Origin: a virus | Lineage: Duplodnaviria; Heunggongvirae; Uroviricota; Caudoviricetes | Reading direction: 5' to 3' (one strand) | Virus record (IMG/VR): IMGVR_UViG_2563366825_000026 | Span: 1-20,791 of that record | DNA: 20,791 nt | Part shown: positions 5,349 through 14,102 of the stretch, piece after piece | Position numbering within the stretch: position 1 is the stretch's first letter | How the letters are laid out: each line of letters opens with the position of its first letter | Program-made: the position numbers and the translations under genes | Notes under the pieces: generated by a model | Seen by the model: only the letters and a program-made list of their open reading frames with translations | What the model was told of the DNA's origin: nothing | Databases searched by the model: none

Positions 5349-5696
5349 GTCCATAAGAAAGCCCCTCCGGAGAGGGGCTGGAGAGTGGCGCTATGTGCCA
5401 TTGCATGGTGCCGGGTGCCTCCCGGTGAGTTCAGTATCAGCACCTGAACCCGCACAGAAAGGATAAGGGTCGGTGACAAAACACCAGTTGCTGATTGCCC
5501 CTCCGCACAGGGGGATTCACCATGCCAGTTTCTTTTAACAAACTCCCCGCAAACCAGACAACAGTCAACCGCCTGAATTGTGAGGTATTTAAAAATTTCA
5601 ACGGGTAACTGATACCCTGCTAATCGCCTGATGCTTTCTTTTTCAGCAACGGGGAAGCAACAACCACCACACCCACCAGCCGCCCATTTACCACAA

Positions 5697-6023: not shown

Positions 6024-6112
6024 ATAAAAAACCCGCCAGGCGGCGGGTTTAAGTTGTGTGGCGTAGTAACCACTCTTAACATACTGACATACTTTTTGCG
6101 GACCGCGCTAAT
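6024..6112 (-). promoter_or_regulatory. late-promoter region: putative PR'-like promoter and qut region followed by a tR'-like intrinsic terminator
   Basis: Just downstream of the Q-like stop on the minus strand: stem CCCGCC/GGCGGG (6032-6047) followed by UUUUUUAU. About 35-60 nt upstream lie an A-rich tract and weak sigma70-like hexamers (TGATTA - 17 - TATGTC). Geometry matches the lambda PR'/6S RNA/tR' arrangement; the exact hexamers are uncertain. Confidence 0.5.
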
Positions 6113-6500
6113 CATTTTTTACTTTTTTGGGCAGCCAGTCGTCCATCTCCAGCCTTACACCCAGCATCGACAGACATCCGTCAATAAATCCTTCAGCAAT
6201 CTGCATCTCAATTCGTATTGCCTTTTCGCTCTTCTTTCTTGTTCTGGCAATCTGCCTTTTTGATATGCGCAGCAGATAATGAGCTACCAGCAGCGAATAC
6301 TCGTCCGGTTTTTTCTTCTTCAGGCGCGTAAGGCAGTTTTCGATGATAAGGCCGTCATCATCGCTGCAGGCCGGGCGAGGTTTAGCGGTGGATGGTAAAA
6401 GGCCTTTAAATCCAGCAGCTATCGGAGAATAGTCCACCCCGGTGTTACCACTTGCCGCCCATGCCCCCCAGCGTTCAAGAACCATCTGAATATCACGCAT
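6108..6500 (-). CDS. Q: late-gene antitermination protein Q-like (short Q family, about 130 aa)
   Basis: ATG at 6500 with GGAGA 6 nt upstream (the track ORF starts at a TTG at 6515). Position is diagnostic: last gene before the tR'-like terminator and the late genes, directly after the nin-region genes. Family identity is from memory of short Q proteins and is unverified. Confidence 0.6.
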   Translation of the reverse strand: MRDIQMVLERWGAWAASGNTGVDYSPIAAGFKGLLPSTAKPRPACSDDDGLIIENCLTRLKKKKPDEYSLLVAHYLLRISKRQIARTRKKSEKAIRIEMQIAEGFIDGCLSMLGVRLEMDDWLPKKVKND

Positions 6501-6517
6501 CAACTTTCTCCACAAAA

Positions 6518-7513
6518 TCAGGACAGCACACCAATCGCCAGTGCGCGATCGATAAAACGAAATATCAGCTCCAGTTGGGAACCATACTTCTCTTCAAATG
6601 CCACGGTATCCACATGCAGTTCGTCATGGTGTTTTCTGCACAAAGGCAACACAAAGAGATCATGCGCTTTTGTCCCCATACCACCCTGGCCGTGACCAAT
6701 CAGATGATGCGGATCATCAGCTGGCTTTCCACAACATGCACACGGCTGCGTCTTAACCCAGCGAGTGTACTTTTCATTAACCCAGCGACGACGTTTGGGG
6801 CGTAACATAAAAGACTCCGGCGACTCCGGATCCACTTTCAGCGCCAGCACCTTTTTCGCTTTATCCCGGATAATACTGGTGGCAGTAACCGAAGGTACAA
6901 GGTCACTCTCCCGGGTGACAGACGGCAAAACAGGCTTCGGTAATCTCAGGGCCTTACGGGCTGCACTTTCCGGTAAAGCATCCGCCAGGTCATTACGAAC
7001 CAGCCACCAGCACAGTTCCGGCATTGTCACAACGTGACTGTCATCAAAACCAAGATCACGGCGCACAACAGACAACACCCAGCGGGCACAGTTATCCGTT
7101 GCCATTGCTTCCAGCCGTTCCGTGAACTGGTCACGGAGAAGATTGTCACAGTGCCAGCACAGACGGATTGCGCCTGGCGCGTGCCGCATTGTGGTCATGT
7201 TCTCGCTGTGCCAGTCGGAATGAGGCCACTGACAGCCCTTTTCACGAAGTAACCAGCTCTCAAGGCATTCCACGCCACCAGCACGACGGATCACCGCCTC
7301 ATGGCGGAACACGGCCCGAACGGCAGGATCATCCGCCAGCGGTTGTGATGATGCCGGAACGGCACCACTGGCAAAAGATGAATAACGTTCCGGCTCAGGC
7401 TCCAGCAGGACACGCCCCTGCATAAACAGGGGCATCAGCTCTGAACCTGGCCTGAACAATACGATCCCCATACGCGGGGCGATTTCAGGGGTCAGTAGTG
7501 CTCTCACGGTCAC
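6518..7513 (-). CDS. DUF968-family phage protein (YdfU-like) with C-terminal HNH-like Cys/His motif
   Basis: 331 aa. The C-terminal CACCGKPADDPHHLIGHGQGG...LCRKHHDELH is an HNH/zinc-finger-like signature typical of DUF968 proteins found upstream of Q in lambdoid prophages. Start codon uncertain (GTG at 7513 or 7507, ATG at 7471). Confidence 0.65.
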   Translation of the reverse strand: MTVRALLTPEIAPRMGIVLFRPGSELMPLFMQGRVLLEPEPERYSSFASGAVPASSQPLADDPAVRAVFRHEAVIRRAGGVECLESWLLREKGCQWPHSDWHSENMTTMRHAPGAIRLCWHCDNLLRDQFTERLEAMATDNCARWVLSVVRRDLGFDDSHVVTMPELCWWLVRNDLADALPESAARKALRLPKPVLPSVTRESDLVPSVTATSIIRDKAKKVLALKVDPESPESFMLRPKRRRWVNEKYTRWVKTQPCACCGKPADDPHHLIGHGQGGMGTKAHDLFVLPLCRKHHDELHVDTVAFEEKYGSQLELIFRFIDRALAIGVLS

Positions 7514-7514
7514 C

Positions 7515-8330
7515 TCAATGAACGGTATCGAGCAGCTTTAACAGCTCAGGGAATCGGGATTCGAAGAAATGCGGCTGCGTCTCGCGCGGATTTGCAGGAC
7601 TGGTGATGTTCTTGCCGAACATGCAGCCTTTCGCTGTCAGCGACCAGAATTTTTTGATGTTGTTAATCGCGGTACGGCTGTATCGTTCGCGTTGTTCAAC
7701 GATCCCCAGCTTCGCCATCTGGTGATATGCCTGATTAGCCGTCAGGCGGATACCATACTGCTTCAGCAGTGCACTCAGCGACAGCGTAGGGCGGCTTGAA
7801 CCATCTGGCGCATCAGCAGGTGCATCAATGGCATAGATCGGCATAAGTTCAGGAAGACCAGCTACCTTTGATAATTTCTGGTATGCACCAAGTTTCGAGG
7901 AGTTTGACAGATTTAGAGTCTTTGCTGCTGATTCAAGCAGAATGACCCCGGATTTAATTTTGTCGGATGTGGTTTCTTCTGGTGATGAATTATGAAGCGC
8001 ATCAAAAGTACGTATCACTTTTAAGCTGAATGCCGGGCTGATCCACATTGCATATGCATAGACCAGCTCTTTACAGACATACGTCCCACCATTGCGCCCC
8101 TGAATGGTGATGACAGGAATACTACGGGAATCTCCCGTAGTTTCTTCTTCCAATAATTCCACAAGAGCCTTCGTTTCAGGACGACGCATAAACTCGTGAA
8201 CTTCCAGCGAACGGGAGGAGCGATTCTCACCAGCGGCAAGAAGAGCAGCTTTCTGAAGGTCGTTAAGACAGTAGTTAGATTCGAAGTACTGGCGCACAGA
8301 AACGCCATCAATTACAAGCAACTGATTCAT
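7515..8330 (-). CDS. KilA-N domain protein (antirepressor / Roi-like or BstA-like)
   Basis: ATG at 8330 with GGAGA 6 nt upstream. The N-terminal block VCKELVYAYAMWISPAFSLKVIRTFD is KilA-N/APSES-like; the C-terminal half is unassigned. It is the only gene in this operon with a long (about 150 bp) upstream intergenic region. Confidence 0.7.
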   Translation of the reverse strand: MNQLLVIDGVSVRQYFESNYCLNDLQKAALLAAGENRSSRSLEVHEFMRRPETKALVELLEEETTGDSRSIPVITIQGRNGGTYVCKELVYAYAMWISPAFSLKVIRTFDALHNSSPEETTSDKIKSGVILLESAAKTLNLSNSSKLGAYQKLSKVAGLPELMPIYAIDAPADAPDGSSRPTLSLSALLKQYGIRLTANQAYHQMAKLGIVEQRERYSRTAINNIKKFWSLTAKGCMFGKNITSPANPRETQPHFFESRFPELLKLLDTVH

Positions 8331-8393
8331 TGGTTTCTCCACAAATTTTTATCCACGAGCGGGACTGCACTCCCTTTTCGTTGATGCAGGATG

Positions 8394-8445
8394 AACTTAC
8401 TGCGATTTTTAATAGTTATCAAGGATACACTGTTCATAAATACAG
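8394..8445 (-). promoter_or_regulatory. promoter of the KilA-N gene with a LexA (SOS) box
   Basis: CTGT-N8-ACAG at 8430-8445 (cACTGTtcataaatACAGta), a near-consensus LexA box with AT-rich spacer. On the minus strand, candidate sigma70 elements are TTGATA (8422-8417) - 17 nt - TAAGTT (8399-8394), or alternatively TGAACA inside the box - 16 nt - TATTAA (8414-8409). Confidence 0.55.
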
Positions 8446-8492
8446 TATCTTTAACGAGGTAATACCCAAATTTAGGGTGTTGCTCAATTCCG

Positions 8493-8888
8493 TTACCGAG
8501 TTGCTAATTTGCAACTCGCTTTTTCGTACTTACTGATAGTGATCTCGACCTTCCCTTCCGGGATAACCGGTCCCCACTCCACCAGCATTCTTTTCACCTG
8601 GCTGTCGTCTTCCCACACACCCGCGTGGGTCAGGGCGTCAAACAGCGCCTTGTTATAGTTGTCCAGATCGCGGATCCGGTTATCCGGAGGAAACAACACG
8701 ATCTCCACTGAAGCAGGTGCCGACGTTGGTTTCGGCAGACGACGTAACTGCTCAACTATTGCTGCACACGCCGCGCTCTGGAATTTTCGCCCCGCCGCGC
8801 TTATCAGGCTCTTACCAGCAAACGCCCCTTTATTGGGGTGTCGCCAGTACGTGTTCACGCTGGGCGGAAAAGGCAGTATTAGCTTCAT
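8493..8888 (-). CDS. rusA: Holliday junction resolvase RusA (crossover junction endodeoxyribonuclease)
   Basis: 131 aa; LPFPPSVNTYWRH...DLDNYNKALFDALTHAGVWEDDSQV matches RusA family motifs as remembered from E. coli RusA (catalytic DLDN region). Start overlaps the upstream gene's stop (ATGA). Confidence 0.85.
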   Translation of the reverse strand: MKLILPFPPSVNTYWRHPNKGAFAGKSLISAAGRKFQSAACAAIVEQLRRLPKPTSAPASVEIVLFPPDNRIRDLDNYNKALFDALTHAGVWEDDSQVKRMLVEWGPVIPEGKVEITISKYEKASCKLATR

Positions 8889-9211
8889 ACTTTCAGGCCC
8901 CTCTCATGTAACCAGTGGGCTGCACGCAGCCTGGCGTTTGCCTCACCGGCAAGCAGGGCGCGGATAATCCCGACCGCCTCGCTGTCGTCGTCCTTCACCG
9001 CGGTATGAAGAGTGATACCCCGGGCCACGCCACGCTTTATCGTGATGACACCTTTTTTCTCCAGTGCGCGAAGATGCTCCACCGCTGCATTCACCGAACG
9101 GTATCCCAGCATGGTTGCCACCTCCTGATTGGTTGGCGGGAAGCCACGTTCTTTCTGATAAGAAATCAGCATATCCAGCACCTGCTGCTGGCATTGAGTT
9201 AATGTCGTCAT
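8885..9211 (-). CDS. LexA-like winged-helix DNA-binding protein (LexA N-terminal domain only, no S24 peptidase domain)
   Basis: 108 aa; LTQCQQQVLDMLISYQKERGFPPTNQEVATMLGYRSVNAAVEHLRALEKKGVI resembles the N-terminal domain of LexA (LTARQQEVFDLI...[34 protein letters not shown]). Translationally coupled to the genes on both sides. Confidence 0.7.
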   Translation of the reverse strand: MTTLTQCQQQVLDMLISYQKERGFPPTNQEVATMLGYRSVNAAVEHLRALEKKGVITIKRGVARGITLHTAVKDDDSEAVGIIRALLAGEANARLRAAHWLHERGLKV

Positions 9212-9861
9212 GCCGCCATCTCCCTGACCAGTTTTTCCGCCTGCTGGCGAACCTGCGCCAGAAATGCCTCACCACATGCCTCAAGTTCATCGCGCCCGAT
9301 GTAGCTGATTGCCGCTCCCTTCCAGGTCTTGTCGAAAACAGCAATAGCACCAGCGAAGAAAGCACCTGTTGGCACCTGCTTTTCGTCTTTCGGGATAAAC
9401 CAGGCTGGCAGTTCAAAACCAATACGCCCGCGAATAAAAGCAATATGATCTGCATCTTCCGGCCACCACACTTCGCTGGTGGCCGCTTTGATCAGGAAAA
9501 CATAGCGCCCGCCTTTATCACGCATGGCACTGGCATGCTTCATGATGTAACGCATGCCGGTGATGTATTGTCCCTCATGCTGACTGGCGCGGCTGTACGG
9601 GGGATTACCAAAGGCAGCACCTTTAAGCTCCGCAAGACGTTCTGACCAGTCATGTGCCAGCGCGTTGTCTTCCGCCGTGTAATACGCGGCACATTTGGCG
9701 TTATCACCGTCAGTAAACAGATCCAGAACAAACGGGCCAAACAGGGTGTTAATTCCCCAGAAAATGTTGTCCGGCGTGCGCCACTGATCGCCCACTTCCT
9801 TCAGTTCATGGGCTGGTTTGTTCCGTAGTTCCACCAGCGCCTGGCAATATTTATTACTCAT
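9208..9861 (-). CDS. phage DNA N6-adenine methyltransferase (Dam-like)
   Basis: ATG at 9861 overlaps the upstream stop (TAATG). FGNPPYS is an NPPY catalytic motif of N6-adenine methyltransferases. Position in the nin region is typical; corresponds to yfdM of CPS-53 by synteny. Confidence 0.8.
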   Translation of the reverse strand: MSNKYCQALVELRNKPAHELKEVGDQWRTPDNIFWGINTLFGPFVLDLFTDGDNAKCAAYYTAEDNALAHDWSERLAELKGAAFGNPPYSRASQHEGQYITGMRYIMKHASAMRDKGGRYVFLIKAATSEVWWPEDADHIAFIRGRIGFELPAWFIPKDEKQVPTGAFFAGAIAVFDKTWKGAAISYIGRDELEACGEAFLAQVRQQAEKLVREMAA

Positions 9862-10355
9862 TAAGCCCCCACGTAATTCCCTGACAGATACCACTCATCA
9901 CCCGCTACAGCGCGCTTTCTGCTTTTCCGTAAGCACCGCTCACGACGCGCCAGAAAATTGTTTCGTTCTGGCTGGGAGTGGCTTTCACGGAATGCCGCCA
10001 TCCACACGGTTGCAGCACGACGGTATAAGCCCCTGGACTCCAGTTCTTCCGCCTGGCGGGTCAGGCACAAAATCACCCGGGGATCGTTAGTGCCGACATA
10101 GAAATTGCGCACAGGTATGGTTTCAAGAACAGGTTGCAGTTTCTCCTCCTGCGATATCTCAGCCTGGTGTGGGAAATGTCTGCGTGTTTTCCCTTCACAA
10201 CAGTGAGCCACACGGCCACTCTGACGTAACTTGCTTGCTGACTGCAGAACGCACTGTCGTGAGTAACCAGCAAAAGCATCCGCAATGTCACCTGAAGTAC
10301 ACCCCGGATGGGCTTCAATGAATTTCTGTACATCGTTCATCAGACTCATGATCAC
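9861..10355 (-). CDS. hypothetical protein (164 aa), possible PerC-like regulator; yfdN-like by synteny and length
   Basis: Start overlaps the O-like stop (ATGA). Contains an HTH-like segment and an ELESRGLYRRAATVWMAAF block reminiscent of PerC-family proteins. Assignment from memory only. Confidence 0.5.
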   Translation of the reverse strand: MIMSLMNDVQKFIEAHPGCTSGDIADAFAGYSRQCVLQSASKLRQSGRVAHCCEGKTRRHFPHQAEISQEEKLQPVLETIPVRNFYVGTNDPRVILCLTRQAEELESRGLYRRAATVWMAAFRESHSQPERNNFLARRERCLRKSRKRAVAGDEWYLSGNYVGA

Positions 10356-11170
10356 CCCCTGAATCCTGTCGGGATCTGGCTGTAGTCCACGTTGTCGTAA
10401 CTGGCTTTGAAGTACGGGTCCTCGCGTCTGGCTGCAGATACCGCAGGAACTTCCCAGGATTCTTCGAAATGACGATCCGGACCAAAGAACGTGACAGCCT
10501 GTTTCACAAATTGTGTGCCGCTATTGCCCATCGCAGATACCCAGCCCGCGTAGCGTTTCACACCTTCCAGCATGGTTTCGGGGTTTACCCCCTCATTCAA
10601 ACGGGCTTTCCAGGCTTTGAAGGCTGCAGATTTTGAATTGCCACCAGCACGTTTGGGATAGGCCAGCCATGCCTGCTCAAACTCCGGAGAGTATTCCGGT
10701 CGGTTTGAACGAACTCGCACAGACTCATCAGCAGATGCACCAACAGCTATTGGTTCATTGACTGGTTCTTTGACTGGTTCAAAAGAGTGACTGGTTCTGG
10801 GTGAATCTCCTGCACTACCCCCTGGTGCAACTCCTGCACTACCTGGTGAATTTGCTGCACCAGATAGTGAATTATTTGCACTACCCCCTAGTGAATCTCC
10901 TGCACCATCAAGATGAAGGAGATAGATATTACTTGAGTTACCTTTTTCACCTTTCCGGGTGACTTTTTTTACCAGCCCGGACTCACAAAGGGCCGCAATA
11001 TGATTCATCACAGAACGTTTGCTAATCTCGCACTGGTCAGCAATATGCTGGTAGCTGGGCCAGCACTCACCCTGATCGCTGGCATTATCAGCCAGCTTAA
11101 TCAGAACCAGTTTTCGCAATGGATTTCCCACTCGAATTTTCATCGCTTTAACCATCAACTCCATACTCAT
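10352..11170 (-). CDS. replication initiator, lambda O-like (N-terminal HTH domain, low-complexity linker encoded by the iterons, C-terminal domain)
   Basis: 272 aa. N-terminal NPLRKLVLIKLADNASDQGECWPSYQHIADQCEISKRSVMNHIAALCESGLVKK is a replication-initiator-type HTH. The Gly/Ser/Ala-rich linker is encoded by tandem direct repeats, as with ori-lambda inside O. Corresponds to the defective yfdO of CPS-53 by synteny. Confidence 0.6.
   Translation of the reverse strand: MSMELMVKAMKIRVGNPLRKLVLIKLADNASDQGECWPSYQHIADQCEISKRSVMNHIAALCESGLVKKVTRKGEKGNSSNIYLLHLDGAGDSLGGSANNSLSGAANSPGSAGVAPGGSAGDSPRTSHSFEPVKEPVNEPIAVGASADESVRVRSNRPEYSPEFEQAWLAYPKRAGGNSKSAAFKAWKARLNEGVNPETMLEGVKRYAGWVSAMGNSGTQFVKQAVTFFGPDRHFEESWEVPAVSAARREDPYFKASYDNVDYSQIPTGFRG
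10755..10920. repeat. putative origin of replication: iteron-like direct repeats inside the O-like gene
   Basis: Three copies of TGACTGGTTC (10759-10768, 10771-10780, 10788-10797), then about five 21-25-bp repeats of the form GTGAA(T)-CTCCTGCAC(T/C)ACC between 10801 and 10915, next to an AT-richer stretch. Confidence 0.5.
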
Positions 11171-11391
11171 GCAGCACCTCCGAGATGCTTCATGTTTTTT
11201 CCGGAGCGAAAGGCTATAAGCGGCATACTGACGCGGTAATTACGGCCCAGCGGTTCACAAATCACCTTCTGACATTCACGGTCAACCAGGCTAACACGTA
11301 GAACATGCCCTGCAGGCGTGGTGTACCACTGACCCGGACGAGGACAACGGAAAGTATGATTGGTAAACCGTTTGAAAATATTCCGGATCAT
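11167..11391 (-). CDS. hypothetical protein (74 aa)
   Basis: ATG overlaps the Rha-protein stop (ATGA) and its stop overlaps the O-like start (ATGA), so it is translationally coupled on both sides. No family recognised. Confidence 0.4.
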   Translation of the reverse strand: MIRNIFKRFTNHTFRCPRPGQWYTTPAGHVLRVSLVDRECQKVICEPLGRNYRVSMPLIAFRSGKNMKHLGGAA

Positions 11392-12539
11392 TTGCGCCCC
11401 CTTACCTCTGAAGGGTTCAGCGACAAATTTATGAGACTGGCCAGTAGCGCCGCGTCGTTGATGCGGTCATACAGACTTACAGCCAGCGGGGATTCGGCTT
11501 TTGCCAACATGGGATAAAGCTGCTGCAGCCAGACCTGATGAATTGATGAAATGTAGGAATAGAGAACGCTGGCGTTATATGCAACGTCGCTCAGTACAGA
11601 GGGATTTGAAAGCTGTTTCTCCATCTGGTTAAAGGCATTGATGTATGCCTCTTTGAACCGGGCAGCACGTTTACCCGTGAAGCCCATGGCAAGAAACGCA
11701 AAACCGTCGCGGGTGATTTGGTAACAAGGGAGTTTGCGGCCTGATGCGTCGGTGTATTCACTTAACACAAAATTGTGTTCAGTAAATTCAGCGGAACATT
11801 CGAGGTTTCTAATTCTATCTAAAACCCGCTCATGCCGTTTAGTAAAGTAATTAGCTACTGCAAGAGATGTGGTGACAACGCGACCATTGATAATCGTGAT
11901 TTCAGGGTGAGATTGGGTTGGGAGAGTAGTCATGGTGACAGCCCCTATGTTGAATTCAATGAACTCACCACCAAGGCTTTCCACGACCATATAGGTGGTG
12001 AGACGTACAGGGGTGGAAATACCGGTCAACATAGAACCCGGCCCAACCGAAGTTGGCCCTGCACGCCCCACCATAATTTGGGCGTAACGATGCTCATGAC
12101 ACGAAAAAACCGCATGAGCGCGGTTGTGCTCTATATTGAATTTCGGGTTTCCACGCCCGGCACCCGCTTTATAAGGTGCCTGAACAGTGTAACGTCCCGG
12201 AATTGCAGAATCAATATGCTGGTGGTCCTTCACACTCAACAAAATCACGCCTGAATTTCCACAAAGGACTAAAGCACTCATGCGGGTAGTCTTTGCGAAG
12301 ATAGATAACGCGCTGTGTTTCTGGCTCCCAACGAATAACATGGACATAAAGCCCTCTTCCGTCACGAAACCAGCGGTTAAGTTCCTGCACAACTCGCCCC
12401 CCACAGTCAGGTAAAGTTCTCTGTGGTTACTTACAGCCAGGTGATTTGGTAATCTGCATTCATGCCGTAACAACAGGTGTTCAGCGACGCTGACCACCAG
12501 CTGTTGCGACAAACGGTTATTTGCCGTTAAACTATTCAT
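11388..12539 (-). CDS. Rha-domain phage regulatory protein with an N-terminal extension of about 200 aa of unknown function
   Basis: Residues from about 203 (MTTLPTQSHPEITIINGRVVTTSLAVANYFTKRHERVLDRIRNLECSAEF...DGFAFLAMGFTGKRAARFKEAYINAFNQME) match the Rha domain, which is usually N-terminal. An internal ATG at 11933 with an AGGGG SD could give a 181-aa Rha-only product. The 12539 ATG overlaps the upstream stop (ATGA), supporting the long form. Confidence 0.6.
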   Translation of the reverse strand: MNSLTANNRLSQQLVVSVAEHLLLRHECRLPNHLAVSNHRELYLTVGGELCRNLTAGFVTEEGFMSMLFVGSQKHSALSIFAKTTRMSALVLCGNSGVILLSVKDHQHIDSAIPGRYTVQAPYKAGAGRGNPKFNIEHNRAHAVFSCHEHRYAQIMVGRAGPTSVGPGSMLTGISTPVRLTTYMVVESLGGEFIEFNIGAVTMTTLPTQSHPEITIINGRVVTTSLAVANYFTKRHERVLDRIRNLECSAEFTEHNFVLSEYTDASGRKLPCYQITRDGFAFLAMGFTGKRAARFKEAYINAFNQMEKQLSNPSVLSDVAYNASVLYSYISSIHQVWLQQLYPMLAKAESPLAVSLYDRINDAALLASLINLSLNPSEVRGRK

Positions 12540-13105
12540 GCGTTAGTTTCTCCACAACCAGAAGCAATCGACGCCACGACGCCCGGAGCTGCACACTCGC
12601 GGGCGTTACTATTTTCTGGAGCGCAGAAGATTTTGTAGACCAGTGCTGCATGCTCCTGGAGCTTCGAAATTGAGAGGTACAGCTCGTCGTTAATTGCTGT
12701 CTTCTCATGCGGTTCCACTACACCGTCTTCGATTGCTGAACGAATCTGTCTGGAATAACTGCCGATCTGTTCAATGACTTCCAGCAGACGCTGGTTAATA
12801 TCGGCGTTGTCCACATCCTCGACGTCAGGAAGAGACACAAAGACGCCATTTGCAGACTGCGCCACAGCGTCAGCAATGAAGTGAGTTCCACCAGCACGTT
12901 GTAAAATCATTGCCCATCCCAGCGGGAAAATCTGATCGCCATCGGCACGAAGGCGATTGAATAAAGCGTTCTCTGTTACATCCAGCCACTCAGCAGCTTC
13001 AGCGTAACCCCCCGGCAACGCCGCGATAGTTTTTCTGACAGCTTTCACGTACCACTCAGGCTGTTTTTCTACTTTCCAGTGATGCTTACCCACGGTTAGC
13101 CTCAT
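12536..13105 (-). CDS. early regulatory protein at the cII position (possibly YdaT-family)
   Basis: 189 aa, immediately downstream of the cro-like gene; protein-like composition. YdaT-family assignment rests on synteny with YdaS-like Cro, not on recognised motifs. Confidence 0.45.
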   Translation of the reverse strand: MRLTVGKHHWKVEKQPEWYVKAVRKTIAALPGGYAEAAEWLDVTENALFNRLRADGDQIFPLGWAMILQRAGGTHFIADAVAQSANGVFVSLPDVEDVDNADINQRLLEVIEQIGSYSRQIRSAIEDGVVEPHEKTAINDELYLSISKLQEHAALVYKIFCAPENSNARECAAPGVVASIASGCGETNA

Positions 13106-13427: not shown

Positions 13428-14102
13428 ATGAAAACAGTCCATGACATCCGGCGGTCTAACGCCAGAAAACTGAGAGATGGTGTTGGCGGGAATTCTTCCT
13501 TTGCCACCATGATTGATCGCGAGCCAACCCAGACCAGCAGGTTTATGGGAGATGGTGCTACTAAAAATATCGGTGACAGCATGGCACGGCACATCGAAAA
13601 ATGTTTCGACCTGCCTGTCGGATGGCTTGATCAAGAACACCAGACAACAAACATCACAAAAAAACCTGATGTTTCAATTACTAACAAACAAATAACGTTA
13701 GTCCCTGTCATATCATGGGTACAGGCCGGAGCATGGAAAGAAGTTGGCTATTCTGAGGTTGATTTGAGCACAGCAGAAACTTATCCCTGCCCTGTACCCT
13801 GTGGCGAAATGACTTATATCTTGCGGGTGATTGGTGATTCAATGATTGATGAGTACCGCCCGGGAGACATGATTTTTGTAGATCCTGAAGTCCCTGCCTG
13901 CCACGGTGACGACGTTATTGCATTGATGCACGATACAGGCGAAACCACCTTTAAGCGGTTGATAGAAGATGGAACACAGCGTTACCTCAAAGCATTAAAC
14001 CCAAACTGGCCTGAACCTTACATTAAGATCAACGGTAATTGCTCTATAATTGGCACAGTAATTTTCTCAGGAAAACCAAGAAGATACAAAATAAAGGCCT
14101 AA
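13428..14102 (+). CDS. cI: CI-like prophage repressor with N-terminal HTH and C-terminal LexA-like S24 peptidase (autocleavage) domain
   Basis: 224 aa. XRE-like HTH (SFATMIDREPTQTSRFMG) and C-terminal VIGDSMIDEY...TFKRL Ser/Lys dyad typical of LexA/cI-type self-cleaving repressors. Followed by a strong terminator. Confidence 0.85.
   Translation: MKTVHDIRRSNARKLRDGVGGNSSFATMIDREPTQTSRFMGDGATKNIGDSMARHIEKCFDLPVGWLDQEHQTTNITKKPDVSITNKQITLVPVISWVQAGAWKEVGYSEVDLSTAETYPCPVPCGEMTYILRVIGDSMIDEYRPGDMIFVDPEVPACHGDDVIALMHDTGETTFKRLIEDGTQRYLKALNPNWPEPYIKINGNCSIIGTVIFSGKPRRYKIKA

Follow-up and report, generated by a model that had tools for sequence, protein, structure and literature searches.

The SOS response triggers prophage induction, and the locus described here raises the question of what a lambdoid prophage does with a LexA-like protein of its own, and which DNA this protein would bind. 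The window, by which we mean the whole 20,791-nucleotide stretch analyzed (IMG/VR record IMGVR_UViG_2563366825_000026), is part of a lambdoid prophage, and its rightward early operon lies on the minus strand. The gene of interest encodes a 108-aa protein and is located between dam and rusA. The genes around it are as follows.

19478 to the end, plus strand: integrase, accompanied by the leftward early genes
13428-14102, plus strand: CI-type repressor with S24 peptidase domain (profile match including PF00717)
12536-13105, rightward early operon: cro-like and CII-like genes
11388-12539, minus strand: Ash/Rha-type region
10352-11170, minus strand: O-like replication gene
9861-10355, minus strand: PerC/YfdN-like putative transcriptional activator (Pfam PerC, E=4.5e-9)
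9208-9894, minus strand: dam, phage Dam N6-adenine methyltransferase, upstream neighbor (PF05869, E=6e-45)
8885-9211, minus strand: gene for the LexA-type DNA-binding domain (LexA-DBD gene), 108-aa ORF with ATG start, stop codon included
8493-8888, minus strand: rusA, RusA Holliday-junction resolvase, downstream neighbor (PF05866)
8343-8492: spacer of 150 bp between rusA and the KilA-N gene, holding an SOS box
7515-8342, minus strand: KilA-N domain gene (PF04383), likely start ATG at 8330 (GGAG at 8337-8340)
6518-7513, rightward operon, after KilA-N: DUF968 gene (PF06147)
6108-6515, rightward operon, after DUF968: Q antiterminator gene (PF06530)

Genes for a NanS-like esterase, a holin and a lysozyme come after Q. 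The stop codon of dam and the start codon of the LexA-DBD gene overlap by 4 bp, and the stop codon of the LexA-DBD gene and the start codon of rusA also overlap by 4 bp. These overlaps indicate that the LexA-DBD gene is translationally coupled and belongs to the early rightward (delayed-early) operon. No promoter-like site was found just upstream of the gene. A preliminary description of this DNA proposed that the protein gives the prophage control over SOS-box promoters; during lysogeny such control is doubtful, because the gene sits in the early lytic operon. In phage SfV, the depositors annotated a dam promoter inside orf40 (29523-29549). A real promoter at this place might allow dam and the LexA-DBD gene to be expressed in lysogens. 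In the window, the corresponding sequence is a poorer match.

The same operon contains the PerC/YfdN-type gene, two genes upstream of the LexA-DBD gene, whose product belongs to the family of Pch/PerC virulence regulators. Three matches to Rfam exceed the gathering score, all on the minus strand: C4 antisense RNA (82 bits, 11991-12078), isrK (62 bits, 12103-12179) and STnc100 (143 bits, 5349-5554). Because the C4 and isrK RNAs lie within the 383-aa "ORF" at 11388-12539, this ORF is not one gene. It consists of a DUF4222-like small ORF (~12208-12390), the isrK/C4 RNAs and an Ash/Rha antirepressor-like gene, and it resembles the P1 immI or the Gifsy-1 isrK-type module. PADLOC returned no meaningful defence-system match.

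The first step is the identity of the 108-aa protein. It had been described as the DNA-binding domain of LexA lacking the peptidase domain, and this is borne out by profile, alignment and structure prediction. Residues 1–65 match positions 1–65 of the 65 positions of Pfam LexA_DNA_bind (PF01726) with E=2.9e-19 and 69 bits, where the gathering threshold is 23.7 bits. The best sequence matches in PDB by phmmer are E. coli LexA (1lea, 3jso and 1jhh; E~1e-15), and this alignment is ungapped over residues 2–70. In a BLASTP comparison with E. coli LexA, 91 residues align at 43% identity (E=1e-21). The AF2 model, for which an alignment of 20 sequences was the input, has a pLDDT of 85 and contains helices at residues 6–22, 28–35 and 40–52 and strands at 56–58 and 66–68. 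Its top Foldseek match is the LexA-DNA complex 3jso, on which it superposes with an rmsd of 1.0 Å over 67–68 residues at 50–51% identity.

The profile of full-length LexA, TIGR00498, gives 70.7 bits, which is below its equivalog cut-off of 110.95 bits, and only profile positions 1–91 of 203 are aligned. The 108-aa protein has no match to the S24 peptidase domain (PF00717), whereas the phage's own CI has one. PHROG 362 (phrog_362) covers the entire protein, residues 1–108 corresponding to profile positions 1–106 of 106 (E=4.2e-59); its name, "transcriptional repressor", is an annotation label. These facts identify the 108-aa protein as a LexA DNA-binding domain that lacks the protease. It has three parts that matter below.

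9008-9211, minus strand: LexA-type winged helix-turn-helix, residues 1–68 (AF2, Foldseek and alignment)
9056-9094, minus strand: recognition helix VNAAVEHLRALEK, residues 40–52, carrying N41, A42 and E45 (LexA alignment)
8903-8992, minus strand: two-helix hairpin, helices 74–88 and 93–103, putative dimerisation module (AF2)

The next step is the surface that would read DNA. In a review of the crystal structure, S39, N41, A42 and E45 are named as the main residues by which E. coli LexA reads CTGT (PMC11442139). Contact lists based on NMR add E44 (PMC3091678, PMC13416735). In the window protein, S39 directly precedes the recognition helix, and S39, N41, A42 and E45 are all present; a recognition helix differing from that of LexA, raised earlier as a possibility, is not what the alignment gives. 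Position 44 is V. Among 20 family members, otherwise 40–50% identical, S39 is seen in all 20, N41 in 19, E45 in 15 and A42 in 14 (S, T or G in the others), and the wing residues R64-G65-I66 are invariant. Such conservation amid 40–50% overall identity indicates selection on the LexA reading surface. E44, in contrast, is seen in none of the 20; the residue there is V, A, F, T, L or Y. Of the 11 retrieved LexA-type sequences in which the LexA linker and C-terminal region are or were formerly present, some of them truncated, 10 have E44. Positions 40 and 42–45 vary by subfamily or allele: NAAVE, NSAVE, NTITG, NAAAE and NGAFE. NTITG is a Citrobacter allele, which lies in the same synteny and has both A42 and E45 changed.

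Judging from these alignments, the reading surface is largely that of LexA, with one systematic change (E44) and some variable alleles, and binding of the 108-aa protein to SOS boxes is plausible. Affinity and half-site spacing do not follow from this, because the dimerisation module is unlike that of LexA. Zhang et al. in 2010 reportedly found that the 8-bp spacing of the SOS box is fixed by contacts between the wings of the two DNA-binding domains. If this is correct, a different dimerisation module need not alter the spacing.

The tail takes the place of the LexA protease domain. Linker residues 69–74 have low confidence (AF2 pLDDT <50 at 71–74), and the hairpin that follows has a pLDDT of ~90. 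The hairpin motif I82, I83, L86, L87, A97, W100 and L101 is kept in homologues at 40–52% identity, and its pattern across the family is I/L-I/L-R-x-L-L ... A ... W/F-L. A Pfam search with the tail gave no match. The hairpin most likely pairs two subunits. HMMER aligns A88-G89 with the scissile bond A84-G85 of LexA. As a cleavage site or pseudo-substrate this dipeptide was rejected, being AN or VG in close homologues and lying in a predicted helix (AF2). The expectation that RecA-stimulated self-cleavage cannot inactivate the protein holds, because the peptidase domain is absent; a conserved Ala-Gly is missing as well.

The protein is shorter than LexA, and its homology spans the linker and the cleavage-site region (profile positions 1–91), as in a truncation. 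It could thus be taken for a functionless, decaying remnant of a captured lexA. However, dN/dS relative to the Shigella and phiSTEC1575 copies is 0.07, the length does not vary, and conservation of the tail extends down to 40% identity. These values indicate a real gene under strong purifying selection, not a remnant. The confident hairpin fold, the intact frame and the translational coupling also speak against decay, as does the presence of the gene in 2233 of 5426 complete E. coli genomes (~41%), with 2855 copies in total and up to four per genome. We regard the remnant explanation as refuted by these selection and conservation data, with next to no probability left to it.

A search of 1.8 billion representative proteins found homologues of 106–135 aa at 40–52% identity, in which both the winged helix and the hairpin motif are retained. 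Phages with the gene include SfV (orf42), SfII, SfIV, cdtI, mEp460, 1720a-02, 2H10 and PhiR49_1, and also Stx2a, Stx2c and Stx2k phages. PGAP names the product "LexA family transcriptional regulator". The gene has been catalogued in genome papers, with pham tables in PMC8136144. In the full-text literature searched it appears in pangenome and annotation tables only, and no functional study of the enterobacterial family was found there. What is already known is the domain architecture and the existence of standalone LexA DNA-binding domains in phages, one of them characterized (gp6, see below). What is new is an enterobacterial family whose conserved hairpin tail is distinctive and whose distribution is unusually wide. 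In the proteins P0131, P0133 and P0151, two LexA DNA-binding domains follow each other in a single chain that has no protease. From their architecture, they could be built-in pseudo-dimers.

The position of the gene is also conserved. Divergent alleles in mEp390 and in IMG/VR prophages occupy the same position, just upstream of rusA. In contrast to these, an IMG/VR locus (L102, UViG_3300039332_000027, 7976-9021) has dam overlapping rusA directly, and the LexA-DBD gene is precisely absent. The context is otherwise identical, and both SOS boxes of this locus, one internal to cI and the other upstream of KilA-N, are retained. This precise absence indicates that the LexA-DBD gene is a discrete facultative cassette. 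L102 is a natural variant and a ready-made isogenic control for the absence of the gene.

The synteny suggests one other role. The protein might bind DNA as an accessory to RusA and/or to the HNH-like protein DUF968, which it would target or modulate on phage DNA, for example. The pair of LexA-DBD gene and rusA, with overlapping stop and start codons, is conserved in subfamilies at 44–48% identity (L020, L008 and mEp390). In a Klebsiella phage that lacks rusA at this place, the gene lies just upstream of DUF968-Q, and in P0159 (240 aa) a LexA DNA-binding domain of the window type is fused to the C-terminal HNH-like domain of DUF968. Synteny in the mosaic nin region is, however, weak evidence. 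Fusions to neighboring genes, such as one of Dam and the LexA DNA-binding domain, resemble frameshift or deletion artefacts, and P0159 may be another. Besides, rusA and DUF968 occur without the gene (L102 and L180), and a sequence-reading surface conserved from LexA is unnecessary for such a role. An accessory function is thus improbable in our estimation.

The question of the target leads to the spacer downstream of rusA, which contains the following site.

8428-8447, no strand assigned: host-type SOS box CACTGTTCATAAATACAGTA in the rusA/KilA-N spacer, candidate target

The preliminary description had pointed to a LexA box 450 bp downstream of the gene and supposed that the protein could bind it. 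The box is real: CTGTTCATAAATACAG at 8430-8445 is an exact CTGT-N8-ACAG. On a rough LexA weight matrix, made from 28 known SOS boxes of E. coli that themselves score 12.7–26.6 (median 19.9), the site at 8428-8447 reaches 21.5 bits and is the sole strong site in the window. Most simply, it would be an operator for host LexA. Immediately downstream of it comes a weak promoter candidate, read by eye, TTGATA (8417-8422)-17-TAAGTT (8394-8399), which would serve KilA-N-DUF968-Q. Through this arrangement host LexA may give an SOS-dependent, CI-independent expression of the Q antiterminator.

A dedicated pairing between the gene and this box, on the other hand, is not borne out by their distribution. 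Sequence identity with phiSTEC1575 stops within the last rusA codons, which is a module junction, and the box therefore belongs to a mosaic module separate from that of the LexA-DBD gene. In complete E. coli genomes, the spacer with the box is seen at 203 places in 185 genomes, versus the 2855 copies of the gene (~7%). The box is also present in L102, which lacks the gene. These facts indicate that the box is at most one of many possible targets. At the junction, inside the 3' end of rusA, a hairpin followed by a T-run is seen on the plus strand (8497-8526).

The window contains four CTGT-N8-ACAG matches versus 0.42 expected, and N8 is the only enriched spacing. The three other sites are GC-rich, score −1.3 to 6.4 bits and lie in coding or conserved regions; they were rejected as a phage-specific operator class. 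Across 80 loci the N8 excess is wholly accounted for by canonical AT-rich SOS boxes. Among 64 loci of the P0132 subfamily, no conserved CTGT-type palindrome with another spacing adjoins the gene. The conserved palindromes in these 64 loci are at fixed positions at least 1.2 kb upstream, apparently within genes.

SOS boxes are a feature of the lineage. Distinct near-consensus boxes are seen in the stretch of some cI alleles that codes for the linker, upstream of KilA-N, beyond Q (~2 kb downstream of the DUF968 start) and at the beginning of a late methyltransferase gene. The boxes of two of these places are listed here.

L002 3103-3122 (Shigella flexneri prophage), L041 1430-1449 and L001 12093-12112 (phiSTEC1575-Stx2k): SOS boxes internal to cI
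L004, L031, L033, L047, L064, L078 and many of L102-L181: further loci with SOS boxes internal to cI
L099 (SfV) 34170-34189, L100 (cdtI) 44083-44102 and many IMG/VR loci: SOS box of the late methyltransferase gene

The boxes inside the coding sequence of the CI-type (HTH+S24) repressor have 22–26 bits, for example TACTGTATATAAAAACAGTA. They lie in a poorly conserved linker, where they encode T-V-Y-[K/I]-N-S, and they recur in substantially different cI alleles. This recurrence suggests selection for a LexA operator within cI, and possibly an internal SOS-controlled promoter. The window's own cI does not contain this box. The late-region box is TACTGTAAAAATAAACAGTG; it overlaps the start of a gene for a DNA methyltransferase, which comes shortly after Q. 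In cdtI (L100), two boxes (26720-26767) precede a dinI-like gene.

The distribution of boxes was compared in 80 loci anchored on DUF968, which are phylogenetically non-independent. A strong box within ±10 kb is seen in 46 of 63 loci that have the gene and in 8 of the 14 that lack it, a small difference and no association. Boxes in the early region are seen in 26 of 51 loci with the gene versus 1 of 13 without it (Fisher p=0.005). The nominal association between early-region boxes and the gene in these related loci is no more than suggestive.

Taken together, our preferred, still tentative reading is that the protein is a LexA surrogate insensitive to RecA, made early in the lytic cycle and dimerised by its hairpin, which binds SOS-type operators after host LexA has been destroyed. 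Its message would be the delayed-early rightward (pR) transcript, which also encodes Dam and RusA. Each subunit would present a LexA-type winged helix with the residues that read CTGT, and the C-terminal hairpin, substituting for the protease/dimerisation domain of LexA, would pair two subunits. The most likely targets would be SOS-box-like operators, CTGT-N8-ACAG. After induction, when host LexA is cleaved, the phage product would re-occupy SOS boxes: those of SOS promoters across the phage lineage, and potentially those of the host SOS regulon. Here dimerisation, DNA target, direction of regulation and timing of expression are what we infer.

The LexA DNA-binding domain's identity and structure, the kept readout residues, the dN/dS value, the position in an early lytic operon and the richness of the lineage in near-consensus host-type SOS boxes are consistent with this reading. 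Several points argue against it. The E44 contact (PMC3091678) is replaced in every family member, and the NTITG allele of Citrobacter is hard to square with an invariant SOS-box target. The dimerisation domain of LexA itself is missing. SOS boxes occur independently of the gene, as in L102, which has both boxes and no gene. The fifth point is a precedent. The truncated LexA homologue gp6 of the Bacillus tectivirus GIL01, seen in Bam35 too (Fornelos et al. 2018, PMC6182141), is 44% identical to the host LexA DNA-binding domain, binds a different palindrome, GaCACAnnTGTGaC, and activates the late promoter P3. Fold and identity alone therefore do not fix the target.

In the manner of gp6, the window protein could be a phage-specific transcription factor with its own non-SOS operator, activating or repressing, for example, a late or nin-region promoter. 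The systematic loss of E44 and the variability at positions 40 and 42–45 would be expected for diversifying specificity. Compared with the neighboring rusA, the LexA-DBD gene has diverged much faster, and standalone LexA-DBD proteins are common in unrelated phages. However, the search for a conserved non-SOS palindrome, near the gene and across the gene-bearing loci, found none, and most members keep the four main readout residues, unlike the case of altered specificity. An operator of its own is the main rival reading for this protein, possible though in our view less likely than not.

The LexA surrogate can be given a wider scope. It can be speculated that the uncleavable protein re-imposes repression on the host SOS regulon and on the phage's own SOS-wired promoters after induction; we hold this extended version to be rather doubtful. 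If it is true, error-prone polymerases, SulA, SOS toxins, colicins and the LexA-controlled antirepressors of rival prophages would be silenced, and the induced phage would control the damage response of the cell. The SOS response triggers prophage induction and Shiga-toxin release, and it drives mutagenesis and antibiotic tolerance. A surrogate of LexA would alter the duration and strength of SOS gene expression in induced lysogens, and in polylysogens the choice of which co-resident prophages fire could depend on it. If the protein has its own operator instead, it would correspond, in enterobacteria, to GIL01 gp6. Annotation of the gene goes back to orf42 of SfV, and about two in five sequenced E. 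coli strains have it, which gives the question a wide reach.

Among known systems, E. coli LexA and its cleavage fragment (residues 1–84) share the fold and the readout residues with the window protein, at ~50% identity over residues 2–70. Like the window protein, the fragment is without the catalytic/dimerisation domain. The window protein differs from LexA in having no Ser119/Lys156 domain, no functional cleavage site, a helical tail of its own and V44. It ends in ...GLKV, whereas ...VAA is exposed on the LexA fragment. This ...VAA end is said, from the work of Neher et al. in 2003, to target the fragment to ClpXP.

BlaI/MecI and the short GntR (YtrA-type) repressors also combine a winged helix with a small C-terminal helical dimer module. 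The likeness is an architectural analogy only: there is no sequence homology, the helix count is different, and whole-chain Foldseek matches are weak (2g9w, 1sd7 and 6sbs; rmsd 8–11 Å). By analogy it supports dimerisation as a probable role of the hairpin, not membership in these families.

The closest parallels are in GIL01. Both gp6 and the window protein are phage-encoded winged-helix DNA-binding domains of LexA without the S24 protease, each ~44–50% identical to a host-type LexA DNA-binding domain, and both are early gene products of phages whose switch is wired to host LexA. The likeness is one of architecture, with no close sequence relationship established. gp6 ends just past the wing, whereas the window protein adds the conserved two-helix hairpin. 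The key contact of gp6 is K38, and its site is a non-SOS palindrome from which it activates a late promoter; in the window protein, S39, N41, A42 and E45 are kept. GIL01 is a tectivirus of another host phylum, and the window protein comes from a lambdoid siphovirus or myovirus. If the window protein does stand in for LexA, it would also resemble GIL01 gp7, since both would be phage means of holding SOS boxes covered although RecA is active. The small protein gp7 binds host LexA and stabilises it on DNA, whereas the window protein would replace LexA.
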